DNA of 56,301 nucleotides, filler included, from Sluysia triapertura (lineage: Eukaryota), in NCBI GenBank assembly GCA_046118255.1. It is 4 parts of 4 records of this genome, joined end to end, with 100 filler letters (N's around TTAATTAATTAA, not from the genome) between each part and the next. Parts side by side here need not be neighbours in the genome. Positions count along the whole stretch, not along the records: positions 1 to 13,178 come from JBJNIA010054772.1; 3 more parts are not named here. One strand, 5' to 3'. Position numbers and translations under genes: made by a program. The stretch's first letter is position 1; each line of letters begins with the position of its first letter. The notes beneath the pieces are model-generated. The model saw only the letters and a list, made by a program, of their open reading frames with translations. It was not told where the DNA came from and made no database searches. Positions 4,401 to 47,484 of the stretch are shown here, in pieces.

Positions 4401-5602
4401 ACTTTTTCTTAATTAAGTTAATTAAGATTTTAATTAATTAATCTATTTTTATATTTAAATTTACTTTATGTTTAAAGGTTTTATTAAGGTTGTAAATATT
4501 ATTTAGTATTTCATAAGACACTCAGGGGGCTCTAGATGTTTTCACCTTCATCACTCAGATTCTTTTTTTCCTTCTTTACTTTAATTATTATATCAAATTT
4601 ATCTTTAATATTAGTAACAAGGATTTTACTTCTCCAATGTTTTAAAGATTACTCAAAGATCTTAATCGCTACTCAGGTCAATAAGGTCCTAAACGATCTC
4701 AAGGTTCAGAAGTTCAAGGGTACCTTAATGCTTCTGAAGGTTTTTCAAACCAATCTCAAGATTCCACAATGTCTCAACACCTTATGAAGGTCTTTGGAAC
4801 TCCAAGGTATTCTTAAACTGTTAATATTATCAAAAATGCTTTCATCCTCTTCATTCTTACTCCAACAATGTTTATAATGTTCTATCCATCACTTTTTATC
4901 AATTATTTCTTTAATATGTCTGTTAATGTATGCAATCAAATTGTAACTATAATTAAAACACCCTATTAATTTGTACGATTTATAAATAGATTCATTTATT
5001 GATTAATTTGTAATATTAGTTTAAAAATTTATGTTTAATCTAAATATTATTTAAATATTAGTTTAAAAAGTTTTAAAAGTTTTGGAAATTTAAAAGTTTT
5101 TAATATGGAATTTTAAATTCGAATTTCTAAAATAAGTAAATATTTAATTAGTTTCTAATAAATAAAATATTTTTAGGGAATACTTATTATTTTTATTTAA
5201 ATTATTATTGTTTAAAATTACTGGTAACCTTCAAGGTCACCTTTTTAATATTTAAACTACAAAATTCTCACAATATTTACACACGCTCAAAATTTCAATA
5301 TATTTTTTATTCGTAAAAATCTTCAAGATTCAAATCCTTTCCAAGCTATCTGATTCATTCTATCTCCTCAAAAAAGAAAGACACTCACATTAGATTCCAG
5401 AAACTTGTCGTTAGTTTAATTTCATTGAGGCCGTTTTTGCAATTTTTAATATTGCACATTTATAATTTTATTTACTTAATATGTTTTAAATCTTTAAAGC
5501 TACCATTTAACTAAGAAGCTTATTAAAATACTTTATTAAAATATATTACTATAAGATGATCTGAAAGTTATTATAAAATAATATTTCAATTAATTCATTT
5601 AA

Positions 5603-5793
5603 AGGTTCATTTTAGAACCTCATTAAAATCTACGTTGTTAAAATTCATTTTTGAGGTTCAGTTCAGAACCTGATTAAAATCTTATTAACAATTAAAATTA
5701 AGATTCAACCAAAATCCTTATTTAAATTTTGGTTCGTTTTTAAGAACCACATTAAAATATTTACTAAATTTTTTGGTTCACTTTTAAGAACCA
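5603..5793 (-). repeat. Array of four hairpins (A/T)GGTTC-loop-GAACC(T/A)
   Basis: Copies at 5603-5620, 5654-5671, 5730-5749 and 5774-5793, each followed by attaaaat. The closing pair switches between A-T and T-A. Confidence 0.85.
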
Positions 5794-5898
5794 TATTAAA
5801 ATCCACGTTGATTAAAATATCCATCATTTATTTAAGTCTATTTTTAGTTGAAATAAAAGAACCTCCACAAATATTAAGTTTTTCTAAATCTCAAAAAC

Positions 5899-5964
5899 TC
5901 CAACGGCTAGTCCTAACCGGTAAGACTAGTACGTTGATGAACTTACATTCATTTAACTTTATTC
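5899..5964 (-). other. Conserved structured retroelement-leader module, copy 1
   Basis: Minus strand: AATAAA..GTAAGTTCATCAACGTA CTAGTCTTA CCGGT TAGGACTAG CCGTTGGA. Homologous to 23284 and 47420. Confidence 0.8.
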
Positions 5965-7773
5965 GCAAAACTAGGATAAGAAAAAACTCTAGTATGTCTC
6001 TTACTTATCTCCTGATCCACAATTGCACAATCCTAATAAATTGAAAGTCGATGGAAATTATCGTCGAAATTGGTTGCCTATAAACAACTCGAAAAATAAG
6101 TGATTACAAAAGATAAGTTTTAATCTTATCTTATTATAAACGATAGAAGTTTTGTCAAATATTTAGAAGACATAAGTAACAAAAAGGTTAGAATAAAGAC
6201 TAGGAAAGCTACTTCAATATATTTGTGGTAAACATTGTGAGTGAAGCCTCATCTTTAATAACAGATCAAATTCTAAAGTGATATTTTGCTTTAGTTTGTT
6301 GGTTTGTTTTTTATTATATTTATTTTGTTAAATACGGTAATTAACATTTTATAAGTCACCTCTGGCTTTTTAGTATTAAATTTTGTTATTTGATTGCACA
6401 AAAGACATTAACTTATTACTGAAAATATTAAGAGTATATTGTGATTAAAGCATAATTAATAATTTGATTTTTCTTTTGTGATAATATATCGATATTTCAG
6501 ACCAATTTAATTACTGAATAATTTATAATTTTAAATACAGGCACAACAAATTAAATATTTATTTGAAATGTTACAAAGCCTATTAGAAAAATAATGAGGA
6601 AATCACTAGAAAAGCAATAATAATAATACTAGAGCAATGTTAAAGTATTACTTTGACATTTCAAGTGCGTGTCATCGGAGAACCTCGAAAGATTGGAAAT
6701 ATAAATACCAGTTACAACTGGACATTTCAAGCGCACATATTAGATGTAACTTAGAAAACCCCGAAATCCTTGAATATATAATCTGATTCGATTACTGTTA
6801 AAATCCTGTATGAAGGTTTCCAATGAAGATATACATCTTTTTCTTTGTAAAGTTTATTTACTACATAATAATCATTTTTATAAAAATTATATTACGAATA
6901 ACTTAAATAGCAACACATTGATTTTAAACATTTTTGTATAGTTTTATTTGTACAAATATTGAACTTTTGAATATTATGTATTTTGACTTAATTGTGTCTT
7001 TGTCTTAAATTTGTTGATTAATAAATAGTTACGTTTGTAAAATTTTATTTTGTCCTAAATTTGTTAATTGATAATCACATTATAATATTTCATTGTTACT
7101 CTTAACGAAATATGTAGTTATAATTTTTCTTTACGGTAACAAAGAAAATAATAAAATCAAATAGATCATTTTAGATCTTAAAAAATCTGACGATTAATAA
7201 TTTAACATGTTTGGAATTAAATGCTAAATATATATGTTATGTATAAATGTATTATATAAATTTTTTAATTAATTATTGTTTTTATACTAAAATAAACACA
7301 ATTTAAAATTAATATTAAAAAATTAAAATTTTAAATAAATGGAATTTAAATTAAATAATAATTAATAATAAAATTAAAAAATAATATTAAAATTTTTAAA
7401 AGAAAATAAGTAAAATTAAATTAAATAATTTTAGAAATTATCAATTTATATTATAATTTAATAAATTTCAAAATAATTAATTGTTTTATTTCAATCTTTA
7501 TTTGGAAACCATTTTATTAAAATTTATTCATTTGGAATCATTTTTAAAAAAGTGCTTATAAATAAGTAAGTTTGATACAAAATTTCTGACAAAATGTTAG
7601 GAGAATTTGATATTTAGATAATCAAAAGTTTTATCAAAAATTTTAGAAGAGAAGATTTTTATGTCAAATTCAAATTCAATGAAGCACAAGGAATTTATTA
7701 TTTCATAAGTTTTAAATAGTTTCACTTTAAGAAAGGAAACTTAAATTATACTTAAATTCATTTTTATTTTAGT

Positions 7774-8118
7774 GCGACACCTTAATACGGTTTTCGTAAC
7801 TAATTTTTAAAATCTCGAGGTTTTCATTAAACTAATTATTTATATTATAATTTAACCTTTGTATTTTACGTTTTGCTTATTAGACCTTAGGTTTTATTTA
7901 CTGACTTATTATTGTATAAGTGTTAAAATCTTCTAAAATAATATTTTCTGAAACAACACCTTAACACAGGTTGCGTAATTTCTAAAGTCTAATAACATTT
8001 TTAAAGCAACAGTTTAATGCGGGTTGCGTCATTTGAATTTATTTTGAAAAGCAACACCTTAATACTGGTTGCGTAAATATAAATTTATATTTTAATAAAC
8101 ACCTAGAAAAGGGTTGTA
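7774..8118 (+). repeat. Array of five bulged-A hairpins GCAAC-A-CC-TTAAyAC-(G)G-GTTGC
   Basis: Copies at about 7774, 7953, 8006, 8051 and 8095; the last four are spaced about 45-53 nt apart. Confidence 0.85.
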
Positions 8119-8473
8119 ATATAATTTAATATTTATAAGTGATTATTATTTTGTCAAACACATAGTAATGTGTAAGTTAATTTTTAAGTTAAGTATAATT
8201 TATAAAAATCCTAATAGCACATCTCCAACAGTGATACAAACCGTGTATATTAGGCGAACCGACTCATCAGATATTTTGTAAGTAGGTTAAGTTCTTCATA
8301 AAGACCATTGCAAACATATTACCTCTAATTTTTCCATATCTATTATTTTCGACGCTGACATCTACGCACTGGCCTTGAGTGCGTAAGCCCAGTGTCAGAG
8401 AAGAATCACTTAAAATATATTAACATAAAATATATTTTTAAACAAAAATCCTCACAAAAGTCAAATTTTAATT

Positions 8474-8620
8474 ATGGAATGTTCAATGTTTAATACTTCG
8501 AGTGATACAAATGTGATGAATTGAATATGAGATGATTTCTATGAAAGAGGAGAATCTATAAATGAGTTCGAAATGCTTGTAGAATGGTTCGTTTGAGAAT
8601 AAGAACCTTAAAACTTTTTT
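8474..8620 (+). mobile_element. Possible gag N-terminal relic downstream of the hairpin array
   Basis: MECSMFNTSSDTNVMN*I*DDFYERG..LVEWF loosely resembles gag F-x-G..W-I-xx-F..W-Y/F motifs; interrupted by stops. Confidence 0.3.
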
Positions 8621-8743
8621 CATTAGAAAATTTGGTGCGAAAAATCGAAAATCAATTAAATTCTAAAAAGTGAAATTAAATTCATTATTTTTATGCATGT
8701 TAACAATATTGTTGATTTTTACTTTAATGTGAGAAATAATTTA

Positions 8744-9085
8744 CCCTATTTTCCGGACTATAAGCCGCACCCAAAAACTTTAAAATGTTCATAATTTAGG
8801 GGTTGCGGCTTGTACGTTGATGTTTAAAATCCTCAAAATTTCCTGACTCTAATAAATATAAAACAGGTTACATTTATACTTATTTATTGATATGTTAAAG
8901 TGTTCTTTTTAATATATCATTACTGCTTAACTTAATTTAATTTGGGGAATATTATATTCCGCAGAGTCACAAGTAGAGAATTTCTAAGTAGATTTATTTA
9001 ATACAGGGACCAGCATCTTAGCTTTTGCATTTTAATGGTGCGGCTTATACGTCAGTTACATTTACTTATAGTCCGGAAAATACGG
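8744..9085. mobile_element. pogo/Tc2-type MITE (342 bp)
   Basis: TIRs CC(C/G)TATTTTCCGGACTATAAG ... CTTATAGTCCGGAAAATACGG, TA on both sides, internal GCGGCTT repeats. Confidence 0.9.
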
Positions 9086-9326
9086 TAAGTAAAAATAGAT
9101 TGAGTAGAGTAAAAGAAAATGATGGTTGATAATAAATCAAATTTTTGTGTTTCCTACATAATGAAGTTTGATAGACCGTACCATATTATTATTGTGGGTT
9201 TAATTCTCAAAGAAGTTTTGATGATTTGTGAGTGTTTGATTGTTAGACTTGGGATTGATTGAATAATGAAAGCGCATAAAATGAAAAATTTTAAAATTTT
9301 ACAACACAATCACACAAATTCACAGG

Positions 9327-11907: not shown

Positions 11908-12168
11908 CATGAGAAGATCCATGCATATGGTAATACTTACTATTATTTTATTATTTTATATAAAACAAATAAATAAATAAACAAATAAATATCTCAAGAT
12001 TAATCTTGTGGGACACCCAGCTCAATTTATTTTATTTTGAATTATTTTATTTTTATCAATTTTAAGTCAACTTTATGGGAGACCCACTGATATTTATTTT
12101 TAAAATATTGTGTTAATTATTTGATTTTTCCCTAATTGTAAGATAATTTGTGGGAGACACTCTGCCCA
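11908..12168 (+). repeat. Conserved CATGA(GA)AGATCCATGCAT-TGGTAA motif followed by three TGGGA-x-AC(C) repeats/hairpins
   Basis: Motif at 11908-11933 matches 15658-15681(-). Repeats at 12007, 12076 and 12149. Confidence 0.65.
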
Positions 12169-13106
12169 AATTTATTTTTAAAATATTTAAGCATTATTAC
12201 TACTTTAAACTTTCTGGATATTGATGTTTTAGTGTTTGTTGCGTCATTCCTGGTTTCTTCATGTAGACTGTCATATCCTTAATACTATTATAAACGTTAT
12301 TGTTAATCTTATTATTTTAGTCACTTTTAGTATTGTTTAGTGGAAATTTATAATAATAATTTGTATTTGATTTTTGTTTAATCAGTAAATTATTGTGTTG
12401 TTATTGATTTAACTTTTTTTAAAAAACTTAATTTGTGGTGAATAATTATTATTATCAAAGTAAAATAATTACTGAAAATTTATACTTAATATAGCGTGCA
12501 CTTATATATTATTGAGACTTGTTTTAAGCTAATTAAATTGATATTGACTTATCGTAGCTAATAATTTGGAATATTAATATAATAATAATATAATTGGAAT
12601 ATTAAACGATTAAATATATAGTAATCAACTTTTGTACCTCTATTTGTTTTATATCATTTACTTAATTTTGTGTATTTGTTAATGTAGCTTGTTTTAATAG
12701 TTTTTTTTGATAAACGATGTGTAGGGATTATTTAAATACTTAGAGACATTTAAGTCATATACTACAATTAATTTTAAATAAGGTAACTTAATTAAAGTGT
12801 GTTTTGTCTATAAATTATCAAAACAAGCATTAACAAACACACTCATTAAGTGGAAAATTAATCAAATGATAAAAGAGAAAAACCCAATCAGTTATTTGAG
12901 AATTAATAGTAATAGAAATTACTAGCTAAAAGTCAAGATATAAATAAAAAGTTCGGGTTGTTAGATATACTTATAAAGATAAATTTCAACATAGAAGTAA
13001 AATTTGCACAGAAAACTTTTATATCCTATAACAACATATTCCTCAGTTAGTTTTATGATAAAGCAGATTTTAGTTGTCTTCGTTATATATGATTTTGCTT
13101 ACTTAA

Positions 13107-13178: not shown

Positions 13179-13278
13179 NNNNNNNNNNNNNNNNNNNNNN
13201 NNNNNNNNNNNNNNNNNNNNNNTTAATTAATTAANNNNNNNNNNNNNNNNNNNNNNNNNNNNNNNNNNNNNNNNNNNN
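13179..13278. other. Artificial contig linker
   Basis: 44 N + TTAATTAATTAA (stops in all six frames) + 44 N. Confidence 0.98.
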
Positions 13279-17797: not shown

Positions 17798-20451
17798 ATG
17801 GATAAAGTCACAAAAATTGTATCTAGTAATATTTCCATTATTAGTTTAAATAAATTGGGATTTGATATACCTCAATGTGTATGTGTTTCTGAACAAGGCG
17901 ACATATTTATAATATGTAAAAATCAGATTGTTTATGCAGTACATTTTTTTAATTTTAATATTTTTATAATTCAAGAATCCATTTTTCAAGTCTTCACTAC
18001 CATTACAATCATTAAAACGAACTGACAGTGATAAATGTGACATTCCAAAGCTTAAATTCAACTTTGCGAGAAGTTTTAGAAAGAATCAAGGTAACGTTAC
18101 AATGGCTTTGTATAGTATTTTTAGGTGATATTATGGATATATTGTTGGATCCCTATTATGAATCAGATTTCAATGATTTTGTATTTACAAAAGGTGAATT
18201 AAGTTCTTATAACCACATCTGGAAACGGTAAAAACTAAAATTGAAATTATTTAAGTGTTTTTCAGATCTTTGTTAGGTGTTTTAAAGAGTAACGGTAATG
18301 TTTTAATTTATTCATACAACAAAGGAAGTAAAACTTTTGAAGAAGTAAGTGTTATAGTTTGAATGTATAACTTTCGAAAAGTTACTAAACGTAATTCAAT
18401 CCGAGCGCATTTTATAATAAATTATGAAATATCTTTTTACGTTTTCTTTCAATTTCAGAAATCTGTCTTTGTAAAGCCGTAGTAGCTCTATTTTCATTAA
18501 ATTATTCGATATTTTTCTGCAATGTTTTTCATTGATTTATATTTTGTCAAAAAATGATCTAAAATTTTTTTTCGATCTCTTAAAGTTTCTTTTCTTATTC
18601 CAACTCTCAATTTTAGAACCTTTACCTTCTGATAAAGATATTTCCGCGTATTCAACAAAGAGTTTTATAATTCTTCGATTAAGTGTTCACACTTGTGATA
18701 ATCTCCTTTTTTAATAAATTAATTCAATGCCTTTTTGTTAGGTGTGCAGTACTGCGAAATGTCTCCAGAATTTCCTTCTGAATAATGTTTACAAATGTTC
18801 GTTTTTCGATACCAATAAGAAATATTCAATGAACGAATACGTAAGCATCAAACAAGATCTGAGAATCATTGATTTTAGCTGGCTCCAACAAATCGACGCC
18901 ACATTGAACTGCTTCTTTATGGCCTTTGTAACGGAATCGGGCCGGATCTTTTTCGGCAATGTCGACTATCAGAACAGAGAAGTAGCGATATTGCATTCGG
19001 ATTCTTTTACAGATTCGCGCATTGATCTGATAAAACTGTGTGACTTCTCGCTTAATCAATTCATGCTTGTATGCGCCTGCACTGACGGCCACGTGCTTGT
19101 TCAGTTCTTCAAATTGTGCCGAACAGAGCAGCTGCGACAGTCAGAAATAAGCGCAGTCAGACGTATTGGCAACACTGTCAAATTACCGCCGATGTCCAAT
19201 CAGAATTTGAAATGTCTCCCCAATTTTATTGGCTGGTGCCACATTCGCTGCTTGTTGATTGTGATGTACGAGACTGAGTTCAAGCTGTTCCAGTTCGCCG
19301 ACATGGACAATAACAAATTGAAGATTAAAAGTAATCTGATGAAAATAGCATCTGGAACCATCGTCAAGAAATTGCTGTTTTCTTTGATCAGTGGCGATTT
19401 CCTGTTGACTCAGGACAGTCTGGTGTACAAGCTGAACTTGAGTAATGGGGTTGACAAATGCGAATTAATTCAGATGGATCTCGAAATCGATAATAATTAC
19501 GAACTCTTTGACGGGTTCCTGTCGCAGAGCGGTGTTTATCTAGGCTTGATAGAGCGCAACACAGTGAAATTTACGAACGCGAAAAACACGAGATACAATG
19601 TCGACTTGATGATGGTGAACCTCTCTGACTTCGATTTCTGCGTTAAATTAATGTTTGACAATTGCAAAGCGTTGTCTCTCAAGCAAGACGTCGTCAGTGC
19701 ACTGAGTCAGTTTCTTAAAAACAGTTACGCATATAATAGGCCAATTTTTCAGTTCGTAGATCCGTTGTTGCGGAAACCGCTTCCTCGGTTGACTACTGGC
19801 GAACTGCAGTGTCTGCTGCGTTTCAGACAAATTTATCCTCAGATTATGAGAGACGACTGCTACGTGCAAGATCTACAAAATGGACTCATCATCAGATTCG
19901 TATTAAAACAAATATCGAGCTTTATAAACTTAGATCCGAATAAGTTGTGCAAGGATGATGCTCAGTTTGCGTTTGGATTGTGCTGCAAGCTTAAAACTTT
20001 GGGAGCGAATTATTTGAAGAGATTCGTAGGAGAAGTTTCCTTGTCGAATTTGTCTGATAATGCAGAAAAGATACTAAGGTCGAATTTCAAAGTTGGTATG
20101 TCAGAAATTCTGAATCTGCGTGCGAGGAATCGACTGTTGTGCTACATATGCAATGAAGTGTGCGATCTGACGGGCTGTGTCAGACTCGGTCATATCAATA
20201 AACGATGCTGCAAAACACTAGATCACGAATTCGCTTTCAGTTCCCGGTGGTACTGTGTCAACTGCGGCGCGTTTCAATTGAAATTGCCCAGTAAAAATGA
20301 AGTGTCGCAATGGCGTCTTGAATTTGACGAATCAAATTGTCCCATTTGTGATGCACCTTTTGAAAACTCGAGCCTGTCGGTTAATTATCTGAAAAAAGTT
20401 CGCCTTGCACAGCAGAGTAATCAGATATATTCTGAAGTGGGTTCAAACTGA
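17798..20451 (+). CDS. GTF3C4: General transcription factor IIIC subunit 4 (TFIIIC90), about 715 aa; exons 17798-17938, 17976-18090, 18125-18227, 18266-18344, 18742-20451
   Basis: GT-AG introns of 37, 34, 38 and 397 nt splice into one open frame. N-terminal LLDP..F..RSLLGVLKSNGNVLIY and C-terminal CxxC..C..GH..RC.T..CxxC..W..CPICDAPF match the TFIIIC-delta and zf-TFIIIC patterns. Confidence 0.85.
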
Positions 20452-21319: not shown

Positions 21320-21840
21320 AGCAAATTTTCTAAGTTCCTCCAGTCATAAATAAAAGCAAAAGTACCTCTTGCGAGAGCAGGATGAAATGATATCCTCATT
21401 AATAATAGTGAGTTTAATATTTAACAAGTTTTAAAGACGCAACATATAAACAGATACAAAAAACCATGTGCACATTTTTTACATCATTCCAGAAAATCTT
21501 AAATTATTTAAAATTTAATCAATGAATGCAAATTAAAAGATTATTCTTTAGTTATTTTTGTTAATATTAATAAAGAACCATGGAGTGTAAGAAACCAATG
21601 GATATATTTCGTATCCATGAAAAATGATTGCACAACCTTTTCCAAAATTAGCGGATCAATTAATTTATAAGTGCTACCATTAAACTTCGTAGCCAATGCA
21701 AACTTGAACCTCAAGTTTTTGCTTCTCTGCGTTATTTGAAATAGAGTTCTTCGTATTTCAATATTTTTGCCAGTAGTAGAGCTGTGTTTGGTATTAAAAG
21801 CTTGCAATTCGTTAGAAATAAAAATGATATGGTGACTCAT
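21320..21840 (-). mobile_element. gag-like relic downstream of a leader hairpin array
   Basis: ORF 21541-21840 contains ATKFNGS..VQSFF..IHWF (gag-like KFxG..WF/Y); it continues with stops. Confidence 0.45.
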
Positions 21841-22152
21841 TTATAACTGGATAATTTCAAGTAAAAAATTAGTATATAAATTTGCAAGTGTTTTTTCTTA
21901 AAAATTACAAAATAACTGAGGGTCGATTCACTTTATAACAATTCTGGAGACGTCCTATTAAGATTTAAACTCATCAAAGAAAACTTAGGCTTACACCAAA
22001 CTTAAAGTGAGTGTATTAATTCTTCACAAATTTAATTTTATATTACGTAGACTTAAATAACTTACAATGAGTATATCAACACTTACTATTTATTCTTTAG
22101 TCAATTATAAAGAGACTTAAGCTTGATAATTCACAAAAATTTAATTATGTGA

Positions 22153-22487
22153 CACTAACCTTCTTAAGGTCTAGTTCAATAAAAATTATAAATAACACAA
22201 GCCTTGTATGAAAAAAATTTAATGAATTTTAATAATTACTCTAGCCTTTTTAAAGTCTACATCGAAAGCTAATATAAAAATGTAGAAATTTCACTAGCCG
22301 TGTTAAGGTCTAGTGTTTTGTGAAAATATGATTTTATTTTAATAATGAAAACCAAATATCCACCTAAAGCATACGCAAACAATCAACAAATAAAAGCTTA
22401 TAATAATAGTAATTTACTATCTCACTCAACTTTGTTGGTGGCTTGAAGAGTTTAAAATTATTACACAAGCCTGTTTAAGGTCTTGTA
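22153..22487 (-). repeat. Array of bulged-A hairpins
   Basis: Minus strand: TACAAG-A-CCT-TAAAC-AGG-CTTGTG (22487-22464), CACTAG-A-CC-TTAACAC-GG-CTAGTG (22315-22292), TAG-A-CTTT-AAA-AAGG-CTA (~22259-22242), ACTAG-A-CCTT-AAG-AAGG-TTAGT (22175-22154). Confidence 0.85.
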
Positions 22488-23283
22488 AGAAAAACAAATG
22501 ATTTTAAGTGTTATTTTATTATTCTTATCTTAAAATGAATTTTATTAAATAAAAATTTCTTTTACATGGAATTTTCTTCTTGAACTAATTTGTTATCTTA
22601 ACAAAACTTTTCCGTTAAAAATTTCGTTAAAAAGTCCTTGTTAAAATTTTCTTTACTAGAAAATAACTTACTAAAATTAACTTACTTCCATCTTGAATTG
22701 CTTGATTATTTTTATTTGATGTGGTAAAACAAAATATGAAGAAAAATAAAAATAATTTTTTAAAATTAAAATTATTTGAGTTAATTTTAAAATATTTGTT
22801 ATTTTAAAATATATTACAATTTAGAATTTATTTAAAATATTTAAAATTTATTAAAAACTCTTGGATTAATATTTTATTTTCATATTAATATTTTACTAAA
22901 ATTTATAAAAAAATAATTATTTTTAAAAAAATATAGTTTTATATAAAATATACAAGATGTAATAAATTTCAACTACAAAATAAAAATTTTTACAAAAGCA
23001 TTTTCAACCTGACAAATTTAGGCATTTAGAAAATCATGTTATTACTTTTATCAAATTTATTCAAATCAATATTTTCAAATGGATCTTCTAGAGAGATCGC
23101 ACGTCATTTGAATTTTAACATTGTCACATAATCATTTTGTTCCTATTTCACAAGATCCACGAAAAATCACATTTAAACCTTTAAATAATTTGTAATTATT
23201 AAATTAATTTGCAGCAATTAACATATATCCAAGAAAATCCAATAATTTTTTGACTTGTCCTCCCTTACTTTTACTCTACCAAA

Positions 23284-23353
23284 TCCAACGGCTGGCCCTC
23301 GCTGGTAAGTCCATTATGTTGATGAACTCACGACTTTAATTTAACTTTTATTC
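23284..23353 (-). other. Conserved structured retroelement-leader module, copy 2
   Basis: AATAAA..GTGAGTTCATCAACATAA TGGACTTA CCAGC GAGGGCCA GCCGTTGGA. Confidence 0.75.
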
Positions 23354-23912
23354 TATTAACATTATTTCTCACAATATTATAGCGACATTATAGTTAAGTC
23401 TTTAATTTATGATTTATAACTAACTTCATAGTAAAATTAACTGAACTTAAAATCTTATTGAATTTAATTATTTTAATAATCTAGTACAAATTATCAGAAA
23501 GAACTTTATTAATAATACGTACATTACCAATCAATAAATTACTACCGAATCCATTCGAAGTCACTCCTTAAATTTTTAAAAATTTATAAAATCAAAACCT
23601 ACGAATTTAATTATATTCCATATAGCATAATTACAATAATAAGAATAAAATATTATGTTGTTACTCTTCTAATATTCAAAACTTCTGTCACCTAACACTA
23701 ATTCAAAATAAAATTAAACAAATTAATAGTTAATAAAATGAAATGAAAACCATGGGTGACGAAGCACAGAATTAAATCAAATACCTTCCAAAAATTGATT
23801 CTTGAATAATAAATAGATAAAGGGTCTTAATGTAATTTCAAAAATTTACTATTAATAAGTTTCGACCATTATTAATTTTTAATATAAAATAATTATAGAT
23901 CATTCACTAAAT

Positions 23913-24160: not shown

Positions 24161-25154
24161 CACTAAATGACCTTTTCTGATAAAATAGATTAGTTATTAC
24201 ATAGGTTTATTTTACAATAATAATACAAAAAATATTTTTAAGGTCTAACTACCCTATATAGATCTTTGGAACCCTAATGCATTATTCACTTGTCAATTTT
24301 GTTATAGATGTTTTCATCATCATGATTCTTATTCCAATAATATTTATACTGTTCTATTTTATAACAACGCATTAATTTTTCCTTTATTTTATACTTCCCA
24401 ACAATATCATAATTATAAAAGTCATCGTATCAGTGGTGTAGGAACACAAAATGTTTAAAAATATAACTAAGTAATCACAAAAGTTATAAAAATAAAATGT
24501 GCAAATAAATTATCGATAAAAAGGTTCGTCATCATCATCATCATCTACCATTTTGGAATAAGATTTCTATTGCATTATCACTGCAGGCTTTACACTTACC
24601 AATGGCTCAAATTTAATGAAAGTTAGTTCAGTGAAAACAATGTTATAATGATAGAATTGACTGCAATTGAGTCCAAGTTTATAGTTTAAGTAATTATTTC
24701 ATACTATCAATAAAATATCTCTAATGAACAACAAAATTTAGTAGTTGTTTATTGCATAAATGAATTTTATTTACCGATAAAAATTTAATTAATTTTTTTG
24801 AATATATAACTTTGTTTGAATTCATAAAATAAGTAAAGGCAGTTAGTTATGATATTTAAATATGTATACTTTATAACATTACTGTTTTTCTTAATTTATA
24901 TATTTAAAATTAAAAATATTATTAATATTAATTTTGTATTCTTTCATTTTTATTAAAATGAAATCTTTCTTAAATATTATAATATAAATATTATGCAATG
25001 TTAATGTTTTATGTAATGTTTTAAGTAATTATTAAGCATTACAATTTTAATTAATTTTACTGGTAAATTTCATATTGCTTAGATTTTTAAACGAAATATT
25101 TATAAAATTAATCTATATAAATAATTTTTCTATTAATAATTCATAATTTTATAA

Positions 25155-25719
25155 ATGTCAAATCGAAATAATTCTCAGTTTGATATTAAAACTAAGGCAT
25201 TTACTAAGACAAAAGATTTAAAAATCTGTGACGAAATAGAACAGAAATTATTAAAGAAGGTACATATTCTGCCAACAGATGTTTTAAAATTGAAAAACGC
25301 AACTAATAGTTTGCTTAATATATTAGGATATTTAATGAAATTTTTTAGATTATTTATGTTCAAATAAGTCTAATACATATGGAATTGAATTTACTAGATT
25401 TACTTTGAGAGATATTGATTCCAATGTTAAGTTATTTGAAGTGGCTAAGCCAGATACAGGTAATTGTGTTTGTTAATTTTCAATATAAAATTCAGCTAAT
25501 TATGATTTTATCCCAAATCCAGATGCTAGTCGATTTGTTAGATATCAATTCAATCCAGATTTTTTGAAATTGAAAACAGTCGGTGCAACAGTTGAATTTG
25601 TCGTTGGTAAGCACGAAATCAAAAGCTTCCGCATGATTGAACGACATTATTTTAAAATGCCGGATTCCGAAAATACTGTTGAACATATATACGAATTTCC
25701 AGCCTTGACGGAGTCCGAA
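25155..25719 (+). CDS. UNC119: UNC119 homologue, internally deleted and lacking its C-terminus; exons 25155-25308, 25349-25459, 25496-
   Basis: Introns of 40 and 36 nt. [59 protein letters not shown] and [10 protein letters not shown] are clear UNC119 motifs. Confidence 0.9.
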
Positions 25720-25733
25720 AATTCAATCATTAG

Positions 25734-26000
25734 AACAGCCGAAGATGATTCTATAGTTCTCTTTAGATATACATTTACAAAGGGTAGCGATGTTAAATGG
25801 ATGCAGAAAGGAACGCTAAATATCAAATCTATAAATTCAAATATTGTTAATTTAAGCGAAAACAGTTTGACCTATGATCGAAAGACAGAATCAAAAGGAT
25901 CGCCTTTTAACGATGGGACATATATTTTTCAGATTATAAATTCGTTGAAAATAGTAGAAGTTAGTATTCATACATATTTGTTAGTTGAATCTGATTACGA
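25734..26000 (+). CDS. EMC10-like segment in frame with UNC119; runs into the contig end
   Basis: [42 protein letters not shown] parallels EMC10 LEHSF..F.KRG.L..LSQ..L..NG.YR..C.LVES. Confidence 0.6.
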
Positions 26001-26100
26001 NNNNNNNNNNNNNNNNNNNNNNNNNNNNNNNNNNNNNNNNNNNNTTAATTAATTAANNNNNNNNNNNNNNNNNNNNNNNNNNNNNNNNNNNNNNNNNNNN
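26001..26100. other. Artificial contig linker
   Basis: N44-TTAATTAATTAA-N44. Confidence 0.98.
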
Positions 26101-32774: not shown

Positions 32775-32940
32775 TGTCTGTCATCGGTAGTGAGATTAAT
32801 TTAAAACAAACTTAACATTGATGTCTATTTTCTACCGATGACAGATCCTAGCTGAAATTAATTGTATGTAACCTGAGTGGACGTCCAATCAACTCTAATT
32901 ATGCATTTCGTAACTCTCATAATAGTGGACGTCCAATCAG
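32775..32940 (+). promoter_or_regulatory. Terminal/promoter module: TGTCTGTCA start, 14-bp inverted repeat, two GGACGTCCAATCA boxes
   Basis: TCTGTCATCGGTAG (32777-32790) / CTACCGATGACAGA (32832-32845); boxes at 32878 and 32926; homologous to 46555-46792(-). Confidence 0.7.
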
Positions 32941-33026
32941 CTTGGAAATCAAATAACCAGACAATACTTACAAGTGCTATAAAATTTTTTTATTGTCAGT
33001 AATTATTGAACAATCATAACAATAAG

Positions 33027-33886: not shown

Positions 33887-36800
33887 AAACAAATAAATTT
33901 ATTTATAATAAATTTTCTGACAATACTTCGATCTTCCGTAACAACGCCTTTTGTTTTTATGCATAAAAATAATTAAATTTGAAAATTAATAAAAGTTTAC
34001 ATTCATTAAGATTCTGTGGTTAGTCCGGAATCACTTATTGTAGTCTCTCTTGTTGGGCTCATTGCGGAGAGCTGCTTGGTATTGATTGTAACACTGTTGA
34101 GATCCATTTGATTCATGATAATGATTTATTAAAGTTAATGAAATGATTTTCAAAATGCACTAATTTATATACTAATATAGAAATTATCTAATTAATAATT
34201 AGTCACCAAGTCATTTTTAACTTTCTCTACCTCTTTAACGAATTGCAGATTCTTTATCACTATCAAAAAAACTGACACAAAAGGGTTGTACTTCAAAATT
34301 GCATTTTCAAACATGTATTGGTTACCAGTATTAGTTGATAGCTTTTATAAATTAATTGATTCGTCCATTTGGAATGTAACTGTATGCAATCCATTTGAAT
34401 CTGATTGGTTTCACACATACTATAATTCTATATGTACCATTTGCAAAAATAACAAATGAATAATCTTTTAATTTGCATAAACACAGATTTGGCTTCATTG
34501 ATTAAATTTTAAGACTAATATTATATAAAACGTGACCATTGTAAAAAATATATGCTAATATGATGTAAAAATGACGAAATGATTTCTTTGTACCTATTTA
34601 TATATACATCAATTTTTATATCCGGTCACATTAACAAAGAAATGACTAAGTTCTTCGTGTGCATACACTTGGAGTAAAAATTATTTTCTTTGTCCAAGCA
34701 TTTGTTTACAAAAATATAAGGCGCATTTTCTCTTGGATAATTTTAGTATACAGTGTCTCATGCCCATTTGTACCAAAATCATCATCCAATAGTAAACGAA
34801 AATTTTCATCCGATGCATATCCATTTGTTACAGAACTAGGTAATTTAATAAATTCATTTTTGAAAGATAAAACATCAATATATAAAAATCTAGAATGTAC
34901 TTTTTACAAAAGAAATAATTTACAAATTCAAATCACGTTTACAAATCCTGTCAACTCAATTTTGTGCTATTTCAATAGGAATAAGAAAAGAAGATATAAC
35001 ATATTTGCATAATAGTTACTGATAAAACTAATGTTTTTAAAGTAACATAAGAGCGTTGAGAATTATTGTTAATCAAAATTATTTTTATGTATTTAGAGTT
35101 GCAGACATTTTAAACAACAAAAAAGAAACTATTTATGTCAAGTTTTTACTTAACCACAAACTGTTAACAGAATCTATTTATAAATCAGTTTATTTTTAAT
35201 AATTCTAGAGTAGTATATTAATAACATTTTGGATATTAATAATTGAACAAAGTCAGTTTTTATAAATATTTATGCTTGTTTTAAGTCACAGTGTAATATC
35301 CAACTTCCAATTAATATTCTGTACTACATAGAAACTTTTTACTACTATTTTATTCGTCTAAAATTCCATTATATAATAACTTTCTATTATTAATTTTTCT
35401 TTTATAGTTAACTCCTGTTGTTTATCCAACTTATTATAATTTACATAGTTTGTTATTATACTTGCCAGCACTTTTATTCATATATTATTAAATATTCCAC
35501 ATACTCGCCACTATTCAAATACATGCATTACAAATATTGTCTATTAATTTTTGAATACATATATTATTAGTATTACATAAGCATTTTACAGCAGTTAAAA
35601 TGATTTTAAATTTAGATTTATTTATTTTAAATTTGAGTAATTATATATATCTTATTTATTAACACCAGAGGCAAAATATTACTTCGTCTAACCAATAAAA
35701 CACTTAACTAATCAGAACGATCTTCACCAATTCAAATTAAATGCGCGCGAGTGGACGTAATGTATGTATTGTTATATATTACGCATTGTAATAATTGTAA
35801 TACATAAACAATCAATATTTTATTTTATTGTCTAGTTTAAATAAATGCACTGCTATTTATTTATTATTTAATTATTAATCTTTTGTTATTTTTCTGCCGT
35901 CTAAAATGTCTAAAGTACTTGATTATTTGTAAAATTACCCATCCAAGTTTTCTTTTTGTTTCTTTGAGTTACAGTTAGAAATAATAGGTGCTTAATTTCA
36001 TTGATTAAGAAACCGTACGACATATTGGAGTACACATCTTTCTGTGGAACTTAGAAATACTAAGATTTTTTATTTTGCCTTCACTTGTATAAGCACATTA
36101 TTTTATTTTTCTTCACAGTTTTATTGACAAATCTGATATTCTAAAAATTCTGAGTGTTTTTCTTTTTCCATTTCATTATCCATTAATTCACTATTTCAAC
36201 TTTTTGATTCCATTCCTTTTATAATTCTTTCCATAAATAATATGGAGCTAATTCATTATGAATAAATCAATATAATAATTTATGTAAAACTTTATTTAAA
36301 ATAATATATAATAAGAAACTTAAAAATATAATTAAATGAACAAATATAAACAAAAAAATAGAAATATTTTTATGATTTTTTGCATTTTATTTCTTTATTT
36401 ATTTCTTTCTTTCTCTTTTGCATAACATAAAGTACAAAAGATATTATTTAAATCAAATATTGAGATTAATTTGTAACTGATCAGAATTAGATAATTTTAT
36501 TTTCTTTATTTTATCTTGAAAGAAAAGTGAATATGAATTTATATTAAAGAAAAAGGAAATAGTAAAATTAATAACGCGGTAATTTCAATTTTAAACAGTT
36601 GAGTAATTTAAAAGATTTATCACGCAAATCATTTAGCAATTACTATTAAGATGATAATAATAATTATTATTTTTATTATTATTTTATAATTATTATTATT
36701 ATTATCTTTTATACTTTTTTACTTGCGTTATCATTTTGCTATTAATATATTTTACTTTTTATAATATTTAAATCCTTTTATCTTATTATTTAACTTTATA

Positions 36801-43661: not shown

Positions 43662-43761
43662 NNNNNNNNNNNNNNNNNNNNNNNNNNNNNNNNNNNNNNN
43701 NNNNNTTAATTAATTAANNNNNNNNNNNNNNNNNNNNNNNNNNNNNNNNNNNNNNNNNNNN
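43662..43761. other. Artificial contig linker
   Basis: N44-TTAATTAATTAA-N44. Confidence 0.98.
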
Positions 43762-45081: not shown

Positions 45082-46443
45082 TTATTCTTTTCGTGCTGGA
45101 AACAGATTTGGGAACCACTGTACTTGAGTTTGTTGTAACGATGGCAATAGATTGTCTACTCTTTGTCTTTGTTCATCTACTTCTCGTTCATTGCAATTCA
45201 TTTGGTAGATGACATGATAATACAGGTAGGATGTACCGAATTTTATGCATAATTTAAATGCATTCAACTGCGACGGACATTGTCCCATACTTTTTCGATT
45301 GGATAAGATAATATTAGTACCAGATATGAAATGAAAAATGATCTTTAACATGTGCTTGAAAACATGTAGCACTATTCAACATGGATGAAATCAACTTGAC
45401 ATGTCGCTCCTATAATGTTGTAGACGATATAAAGTTATTCTTGCGAAGCGACGCAATATAATCTTAAAATATTCTATACTCTTAACATCTGATTTTGCCA
45501 TTTATTGATTTAAGTATTAATGTTTACAAGAAATTACATACATAACCGGCTTAGATAATACAAATGACACAGCACGATTAATAACAGCTTTATCATGGTC
45601 AATTTGAAATATTAGACCACGATTTAACATGTAGTATATCGTTAGTAATTCGAGAAAATTTTCTAAACGCACAATTTCACTGTACGACACACAACGGCAT
45701 AAACGCTCTCGTTCGGATACATTTTCGAAATCTTTCAATTCTATATGATAAACAGGAATAGTGTAAGGTCGATTTTTACAATTCAAGAATTTTCTAACTA
45801 AGGAATTAATACTTGTTTTAACAGGTTTAGGATGATAAAATTTTTCATCAGTAAGAGTTATGTCATTTAAGCTTTTGTTCATACTATATACAAGACTTGC
45901 TGATAGATGTAAGTCATTCAAAATTGTTTCATTAGTAATTCTATAAAATAGGTCTGATGTAACCATTGAACAATGATTTTGATTAAGTTAATACGTATTA
46001 CACTTTCAGTATTTGGATTTAGGAAGCATAACTTGTAATTCATTAGCAATAAAATTACGACTTTTATCGGTTGGAAGATATATTATTACATCTGACTTTG
46101 ATAACAAAAGATACTGTTGTTTATTATGGAATTCAATAACATATAAGACAGTAGGTAGCTTACATATTAGGTCAATATAAAACAACAACTGATTTTTAGT
46201 TTTTACTAAGTTAAATGTTACTATTGAATTTATAAAAAGTTTATTCGGTTTAGTTATCTTTATAAATTGTCCACTTTTATCACTTGAGTGAAGTAAAAAT
46301 TCATCATTGAAAACATTACGTTTACGTTCAGCTTCGTAATGATACCACTTTATATTTTTCAATAAATCAATCTGTTTTTTAATTTCAACATCAATAATAG
46401 GTCGAATATTTTCGTCTGAGAATAAATATGTATCATCCATCAT
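45082..46443 (-). pseudogene. Run of three closely packed ORFs (145, 149 and 96 aa) of unknown family
   Basis: Co-oriented and protein-like in composition, directly downstream of the paired-CCAAT module; either one broken gene or a small gene cassette. Confidence 0.5.
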
Positions 46444-46554
46444 AATTTACTTCTGAATCGTTTTAAAATTAACTATTAATTACTTGAATCGTTATAATAT
46501 AATTTTTTAAACTTTTTGTTGTGTTCAATTTTTATTTAGCTGCAATATCTATTA

Positions 46555-46792
46555 TGATAGGGTGTCCAATAAAAGTAACAAATAGTAAAATACAAAAATA
46601 GAGTTGATTGGACGTCCAATCAAACTAACTGGATTAATATTAATTAATGATTATGTTGTGCAGATATATACCTGTCACCATGCAACTATAAAGAGATGAC
46701 AATTAAGAAATGGTGACATGCACTTTCAATCTATGCAGCTGGCAACAACAAAATCAATTTTTGTACAAATGATCTGTCTAGATTGACAGACA
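46555..46792 (-). promoter_or_regulatory. Terminal/promoter module, copy 2, with a perfect 20-bp palindrome
   Basis: TTGATTGGACGTCCAATCAA at 46604-46623, second degenerate box near 46560, TGTCTGTCA start at 46792, short inverted repeats at 46673/46710 and 46773-46790. Confidence 0.7.
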
Positions 46793-47148: not shown

Positions 47149-47271
47149 TACAAATCCTATAAGGATTTTGTAAAATACCAATGTAATAACCTTTACTAAC
47201 ATCAATTTTGTTTATTTTTATTGAAACCCGAAAAAATTATTCTTAAGTCCTATTTTTAAAGGATTCTTGTA
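47149..47271 (-). repeat. Two bulged hairpins with TCCT/AGGA upper stems
   Basis: TACAAA-A-TCCT-TAT-AGGA-TTTGTA and AAG-AA-TCCT-TTAAAAAT-AGGA-CTT. Confidence 0.6.
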
Positions 47272-47419
47272 AAATCACAGTTATTAACCCAGATTAAAAG
47301 AGTTAATCATTTACTCCAGCAAACTTTAATGAAATATACTGATTTACTGCGAACTAAAGAATCAATTTGACTACAACCTATGCATGATTAATTAACTTCC
47401 TCTAGTTAATTTTAAGAAA

Positions 47420-47484
47420 TCCAACGGCTGCCCCTAACCGGTAAGACTAGATACGTTGGTGAACTCACATTCACATCTTTATTC
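47420..47484 (-). other. Conserved structured retroelement-leader module, copy 3
   Basis: AATAAA..GTGAGTTCACCAACGTAT CTAGTCTTA CCGGT TAGGGGCAG CCGTTGGA. Confidence 0.8.

Follow-up and report, generated by a model that had tools for sequence, protein, structure and literature searches.

Two arrays of short hairpins in a stretch of Sluysia triapertura DNA (assembly GCA_046118255.1; the whole stretch analyzed, 56,301 nt long, is referred to here as the window) are real, covarying, and part of a decayed repeat family. Tentatively, we interpret them as predicted RNA hairpins belonging to the leader of a mobile element, now dead and probably a retroelement, where one protein would bind them in several copies. 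With two decayed homologous copies, two looser relatives and no partner protein, the arrays are a good lead and not a result.

The window has approximately 25% GC across its 56 kb and consists of four contigs separated by N-linker gaps (13179-13278, 26001-26100 and 43662-43761). It is eukaryotic, as it contains an UNC119 gene (Pfam E 3e-20; PDB E 9e-21), and its host genes are interrupted by GT..AG stretches of 34-38 nt. Comparison of the window with itself showed dispersed repeats to be numerous, short and decayed, with identities of 66-88%. Its general content includes:

25489-25998, plus strand: UNC119 homolog, in which about 14 residues of the human core are missing and which diverges past residue 78
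18742-20451, plus strand: 569-aa open frame of elevated GC, rich in cysteine at its C-terminus
8743-9087: MITE-like insertion with inverted ends starting TACC.TATTTTCCGGACTATAAG, located at a TA within a repeat family (F1, below)

The long open frame had no Pfam match and no match in a protein search (0 among 5640 candidates for a 539-aa ORF), and the MITE ends presumably resemble those of Tc2/pogo elements. Short repeated GC-rich words, GGGACACCC/GGGAGAC and GGACGTCCAATCA, were observed at 12008-12170, 32878-32945 and 46560-46622, and may represent further small arrays.

Geometry and covariation of the hairpin units

The units of the two arrays, A and B, are located as follows:

7719..7740, plus strand: unit A0, GTTTC-A-CT-TTAAGAA-AG-GAAAC, 7/7 pairs, model-pair probability 0.99
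7774..7795, plus strand: unit A1, decayed, 5/7 pairs, unbulged register preferred, mean model-pair probability 0.28
7879..7896, plus strand: candidate loop-shortened remnant unit (A-CC-TTA-GG), from the motif list of the strict scan
7953..7974, plus strand: unit A2, 5/7 pairs with two A-C mismatches, mean model-pair probability 0.07
8006..8027, plus strand: unit A3, 6/7 pairs, mean model-pair probability 0.70
8051..8072, plus strand: unit A4, 6/7 pairs, mean model-pair probability 0.53
8096..8117, plus strand: unit A5, 5/7 pairs, mean model-pair probability 0.19
22154..22541, minus strand: array B, with bulged A at 22536, 22481, 22309, 22256 and 22170, and 6, 7, 7, 6 and 7 of 7 pairs, respectively
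near 22189-22213, minus strand: deleted remnant unit of array B

Each unit spans 22 nt and is formed by a stem, one unpaired A, a 2-bp upper stem and a 7-nt loop. Over the 11 units of both arrays, 67 of the 77 model pairs form, and the bulged A, on the 5' side and two pairs below the loop, is kept in every one. Conservation extends to the loop, with U at position 1 and A at position 4 in 11/11 units, and U at position 2 and a purine at position 6 in 10/11. Units B1, B2 and B5 form all seven pairs, with model-pair probabilities of 0.99, 1.00 and 0.82, and units A1 to A5 are the most decayed of the set, the drawn structure being the full minimum-energy fold in none of them. Moreover, A0 differs in its letters at four of the seven pairs from the best-kept later units, yet pairs completely, and its counterpart in array B, B0, has 6/7 pairs with two compensatory changes. 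We also observed a GTAA-like unpaired flank after the stem, at +17 to +20 from the bulge, in which +20 is A in 11/11 units.

The initial annotation had reported five related units on the plus strand, at 7774, 7953, 8006, 8051 and 8096, and all of them are present, although A0 had been missed. The consensus given for these five is matched by none, as they form 5, 5, 6, 6 and 5 of 7 pairs. The sequences quoted for the minus strand at 22 kb and 47.15 kb do occur as written, and of the core that was said to be shared, the bulged A and the loop U1 and A4 hold in all 11 units of the two arrays; the hairpin at 47.15 kb has neither the CC/GG pairs nor the UUAA loop start.

Pairing was evaluated in several ways. 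The bulged register was better than the unbulged one in 10 of the 11 units, with a tie in the remaining one, and arms paired with their own partners beyond what was found with shuffled partners (p 2e-5 with all units taken together; 0.0056 within arrays). With unit 0 left out, the within-array test was not significant (54/63 pairs, p 0.17). In the nine units noted first, pairing holds for 79% of cells and covariation reached 0.41, compared with 0.18 +/- 0.05 in 500 shuffles, and slid-partner controls paired at only 24-47%; RNAalifold found no consensus structure on the same nine. A covariance model built from them, with A0 outside the training set, returned a single additional unit when 48.9 kb were scanned at E < 0.05, namely 7713-7748 (E 0.017), whereas the first 7.3 kb of the window yielded none. 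Since the bulged form is carried by two lineages only, independent changes are few.

The scan for enrichment and orientation relative to gag, proposed for the whole genome, was run within the 56-kb window only. A 7-nt loop starting with TTAA together with at least 6/7 pairs gave 8 matches, 7 of them in arrays A and B, against 1.0 +/- 1.1 in 30 local shuffles, a count that is partly circular because the descriptor was derived from these same units; the link to gag did not hold. A geometry-only descriptor gave 15 matches in the window, with 6.7 expected by chance, and the strict stem-A-CC-loop-GG-stem pattern gave 3, all at 22 kb. In Rfam, matches of the units and of the upstream motif described below were all far below the gathering score, and ARAGORN reported none.

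Two diverged copies of one dispersed element

Both arrays lie within longer stretches that are homologous to each other:

6868..8335, plus strand: copy A, collinear with copy B, without the stretch of copy B that bears an upstream two-hairpin motif
21861..23896, minus strand: copy B
8200..8335, plus strand: conserved block 3' of the array, common to copy B only (score 71 vs 27 +/- 3.5)

The two stretches align collinearly over approximately 930 nt at 57% identity, with a local score of 253 as to 100 +/- 11 for shuffled sequences, so that the arrays at 7.8 kb and 22 kb do not belong, as had been suggested, to elements with unrelated stems. The homology extends upstream, starting from 6868 in one copy and 23896 in the other (score 129 vs 90 +/- 8.5), and stops at CTAAT plus a T-run, at 8335/21861. 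Unit spacings are 55, 179, 53, 45 and 45 in copy A and 55, 172, 53 and 86 in copy B, where one unit has been deleted; the values 55 and 53 are identical between copies. At 35 matched pair positions, a count in which the correspondence of A4 to B5 is an assumption, 15 are identical, 11 changed on both sides, 1 changed on one side and 8 are broken; the lower stems had been described as completely different, which the 15 identical positions contradict. Given the collinear alignment, the spacings and the matched pair positions, we consider that these are two diverged versions of one element, and not a motif of unrelated elements. Decay is more pronounced in copy A than in copy B.

A check for LTR pairs with TG..CA ends found no second copy within any contig, the contigs being of 13-18 kb and the copies decayed. 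No target duplication was identified, and self-comparison and alignment of the window found no terminal inverted repeats (TIRs) at the ends of the homology, although the true ends of the element may lie elsewhere.

An alternative origin of the arrays is a functionless minisatellite, created by tandem duplication of a chance hairpin unit of approximately 45-55 nt, with the matching changes produced when the inverted repeats underwent repair by template switching. The regular period, the weak similarity among spacers, the dependence of the within-array signal on unit 0, and the abundance of decayed repeats in the window are all compatible with such an origin. However, repair of a palindrome is expected to erase a bulge, and the A has been kept in 11/11 units despite the copies being only 57% identical over the local alignment. 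In addition, TRF called no tandem array at these positions, from which we conclude that spacers diverged while units did not. We therefore regard the minisatellite as quite improbable.

Even less probable is a reading of the units as micro-exons, or as the decayed form of a peptide repeat, with the spacers as small introns. All 11 units are stop-free in one frame, with words resembling H/D-L/F-N/K-x-G/A, GT follows the stem in 7/11, and two of the copy B spacers run from GT to AG over 37-38 nt, similar in size to the 34-38 nt intron-like stretches of the host genes. Nevertheless, AG is found right before the bulge in only 4/11 units, all of copy B, the spacings of 55 and 53 in both copies are not multiples of three, and at the covarying pairs the changes are non-synonymous, with base pairing exactly preserved. 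The preservation of shape while stem letters change and spacers drift suggests that a folded single strand was under selection in the active ancestors.

Sequences flanking the arrays

Upstream of array B lies a 57-nt two-hairpin motif, present in exactly three copies in the window, all on the minus strand. These copies and the hairpin groups that accompany two of them are:

23281..23337, minus strand: two-hairpin motif of copy B
5896..5952, minus strand: second copy of the motif
47417..47473, minus strand: third copy of the motif
5603..5793, minus strand: array D, four perfect 6-bp hairpins with GGTTC/GAACC arms, 6-8 nt loops and no bulge
47150..47271, minus strand: two mutually related hairpins, C1 and C2, with TCCT/AGGA upper stems

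At the three loci, this shared motif precedes a group of hairpins on the same strand, located 3' of it at a distance of approximately 750 nt (array B), 150-270 nt (C1 and C2) and approximately 100 nt (array D). Copy A is devoid of the motif, apparently through loss of an internal segment. The motif shows a defined order, with AATAAA just 5', followed by a hairpin with a GNRA loop that can also be read as a GTRAGT splice donor, and by an adjoining long hairpin. In the motif alignment, 88% of cells pair and two compensatory changes are seen, which is not significant with three sequences (114/500 shuffles reach this covariation). A tRNA primer site would need TGG; one of the three copies has CA closely followed by TGG, and the other two have CG and TAG. 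Rfam returned no match at the gathering score for the upstream motif, the arrays or the block 3' of them; it gave no support to reading the motif or the 3' block as a hammerhead, an HDV-like or U1-like RNA or an SL RNA, and these identifications were discarded.

The outer pair of the array D hairpins is T-A in two units and A-T in the other two, and such a cluster of 4 compares with at most 2 in 15 shuffles. At the array D locus, the sequence 3' of the motif shows a weak alignment with its equivalent in copy B (120 vs 82 +/- 8), in AT-rich sequence. For C1 and C2, the hairpin at 47.15 kb forms 7/7 pairs, but the covariance model gives it an E of only 4.6, and the 47 kb region did not align with copy A or copy B; their link to arrays A and B is weak. 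Approximately 700 nt past C1 and C2, at 45517-46446 on the minus strand, two intact orphan ORFs of 146 and 156 aa were observed, neither of which had a Pfam or Atlas match; the 156-aa ORF (45520-45987) had no HMMER match either.

Strand preference and palindromy bear on whether the units act as DNA, that is, as quasi-palindromes or single-stranded DNA hairpins recognized by a dimeric transposase or a replication protein of a DNA element. The outer arms are indeed inverted repeats of each other, with a constant 12-nt middle between them, the arms of array D are perfectly palindromic, and DNA transposons exist in the window, as seen with the MITE at 8743-9087. Moreover, the arrays do not establish a strand preference: the strand signal across them is weak (G-U 4 vs A-C 2), and array A folds more strongly on the opposite strand (z -2.7 vs -1.6). 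On the other hand, the symmetry axes of the inner and outer parts are one base apart, no TIR was found at the homology ends of copies A and B, and the arm letters of unit 0 are unlike those of the rest of the same copy, which disfavors a single sequence-reading dimer. We consider sites at the DNA level unlikely and retain the leader RNA reading.

Downstream of the arrays, each copy enters a different repeat family:

8450..9284, plus strand: family F1, following copy A, holding the claimed gag-like start at 8475, with frame-breaking indels, stops and the MITE insertion
21503..21885, minus strand: family F2, following copy B, decayed and protein-like

It had been proposed that both arrays lie shortly upstream of a gag-like start, which our analysis does not bear out. 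The ATG at 8475 is found inside an 11-nt stretch that is missing from the homologous F1 copy at 4.0-4.3 kb (minus strand), the two F1 copies are distinguished by three indels, of 11, 11 and 34 nt, and have stops common to both in the frame read, and the region is interrupted by the MITE. In addition, F1 and F2 are different families with no mutual match, the frames downstream of both copies are all broken, and nothing matched gag. Pfam searches of 32 ORFs of the window returned only UNC119 and weak helicase matches, and those of 27 frames with X at stops, covering part of the window, returned no retroelement family; PDB searches gave chance matches only, with no gag or pol, and protein searches gave 0 matches for the F1 alignment (77 candidates) and for the F2 ORF (8 candidates), all of which are weak negatives for very decayed sequence, from which a very divergent gag might escape. 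Reverse transcriptase (RT), RNase H and integrase were not found with Pfam and PDB, with part of the window read through stops. By eye, F1 had looked like the start of a gag, F2 like an integrase core and a third family, F3, like an RT thumb; as no test supported them, these readings were dropped.

In copy B, the array is followed by a branch-point-like TACTAAT with an AG, and then by F2, of which a second copy at 34160-34518 (plus strand) shows protein-like similarity. This order would suit a regulatory module, located in the 5' UTR or an intron of a host gene family specific to the lineage and recognized by a host RNA-binding protein. However, the leader of copy A enters an unrelated family, the second F2 copy has no hairpin array, and every downstream frame is broken, so we see little chance that the arrays belong to host genes and keep to a mobile-element leader.

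Other features were noted in these regions. After copy A only, a GC-rich island at 8352-8400 (plus strand) folds into a two-part hairpin of -21.7 kcal/mol, with a possible alternative pseudoknot pairing. F3 is present at 4764-4895, 24239-24363 and 2-84, all on the minus strand; its copy at 4.8 kb contains one A-CC-N7-GG hairpin with 6/7 pairs and the bulge at 4791, followed by several ACCTT words, and no alignment of this copy with arrays A and B was found. A fourth family, F4, has four C/A-skewed copies (9325 plus, 31823 plus, 39369 plus and 51281 minus) with unrelated upstream flanks; they begin near TG(T)GGTGGCCAA, which is possibly an LTR-like or other element end.

Known systems and a possible role for the arrays

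The MS2 operator TR consists of a lower stem, a single bulged A and a short upper stem, its shape being more important than the letters of its stem, and its loop has 4 nt. The likeness of our units to it lies in the bulged A, kept in 11/11, and in the 2-bp upper stem only, so the MS2-operator-like geometry originally proposed stands for these two traits and fails for the operator's 19-nt size and 4-nt loop. Being 22 nt long with a 7-nt loop, the units may work in an operator-like manner and are not members of the MS2 family. Anticodon U-turns likewise have loops of 7 nt in which position 2 is U and position 6 a purine, traits that the units share (10/11 for each position), but the anticodon stem is bulge-less and theirs is bulged. 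The size of TR is given in the accessible text of PMC4751978, among whose references a title on the bulged A is listed, and for the Qbeta operator the accessible text of PMC11724954 states that a 3-nt loop over a 4-bp upper stem is required. Moreover, in contrast to both phages, the host is a eukaryote, and Pfam detected no levivirus gene near the arrays in the 32 ORFs and 27 read-through frames.

In retroviral leaders, packaging hairpins follow the splice-donor hairpin. Copy B resembles the leaders of retroviruses, Ty1 and Ty3 in the order of a poly(A)-like signal, a splice-donor-like hairpin, a structured region and a downstream frame, and differs from them in that no LTR pair, validated primer site, gag or pol was found here. 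Because its array is located 3' of AATAAA and of the splice-donor-like hairpin, a spliced transcript of copy B would omit the array, as is typical of a packaging signal. The splice-donor hairpin of HIV-1 is described within the untranslated leader (PMC4974535, accessible part), and for Ty1 and Ty3, the accessible parts of PMC4974528 and PMC11381356 do not describe a tandem bulged-A array; the latter states that the cis sequences for Ty3 packaging are not precisely defined. Packaging signals of LTR retrotransposons are poorly defined. A precedent comes from single-stranded RNA viruses, in which short repeated structured motifs act as packaging signals; those of coronaviruses occur in two to eight copies of a short, lineage-specific structured motif with proposed binding to the capsid protein (PMC8206606, accessible part). 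They carry other loop and bulge motifs, and belong to RNA viruses, whereas the arrays described here are a chromosomal repeat.

A protein-binding RNA array in a leader is favored because the shape of the units is kept, multivalency is suggested by five or six copies in approximately 400 nt, the order of elements in copy B is retroviral-leader-like, and single-stranded RNA viruses offer a precedent. The multivalent protein-binding array put forward in the initial annotation is supported to the extent that compensatory changes preserve the pairing and the bulged A, which is in line with a repeated structure recognized by a protein; its link to gag is not supported, and Gag may be the partner. 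In the mechanism we envisage, copies A and B would derive from diverged subfamilies, within each of which the stem letters would have been homogenized while selection maintained the shape. The structure would form in RNA, on the strand originally indicated, and the partner would be an element-encoded protein of the capsid or nucleocapsid type, which may use the array to pick out or to repress its own RNA.

Our search of the literature, which covered mostly open-access papers, found no description of the hairpin motif; the arrays are apparently undescribed. Among the matches listed for public metagenome and viral contigs, no relative of the arrays or of the upstream motif was found. The upstream motif itself had 0 matches in metagenome contigs; a looser pattern of it occurred at at least 120 viral loci and, among the matches listed, 10 had GTTG within 30 nt downstream and none had the rest. 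A two-unit pattern, which would miss the decayed arrays of the window itself, occurred at 6 metagenome loci and 1 viral locus, and all 7 were rejected as relatives, as they had no lower stem at the matched units or were located inside coding frames. At one locus (L125:3870-4100), a 43-bp tandem repeat with an ACCTTAA...GG core was observed approximately 1.9 kb before an ORF that by eye resembles a copia-type gag; its units have no lower stem, and it is therefore treated as unrelated.

A more speculative proposal, to which we attach a rather low probability, is that self-selection of RNA takes place in an unclassified family of eukaryotic mobile elements, by means of subfamily-specific, operator-like arrays, each co-evolving with the RNA-binding protein of the element, in the way that phage operators differ from one another. 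If true, it would represent a discrete, repeated code for packaging or autoregulation, of which we found no description for retrotransposons. A covarying repeated hairpin with subfamily variants would provide a testable model for the recognition by an element of its own RNA, and a possible source of new orthogonal RNA-protein tag pairs. The variants considered in such self-selection are the bulged A with 2 bp above it in arrays A and B, 4 bp above the bulge in C1 and C2, and the bulge-less hairpins of array D, with loops mostly starting with UUAA.
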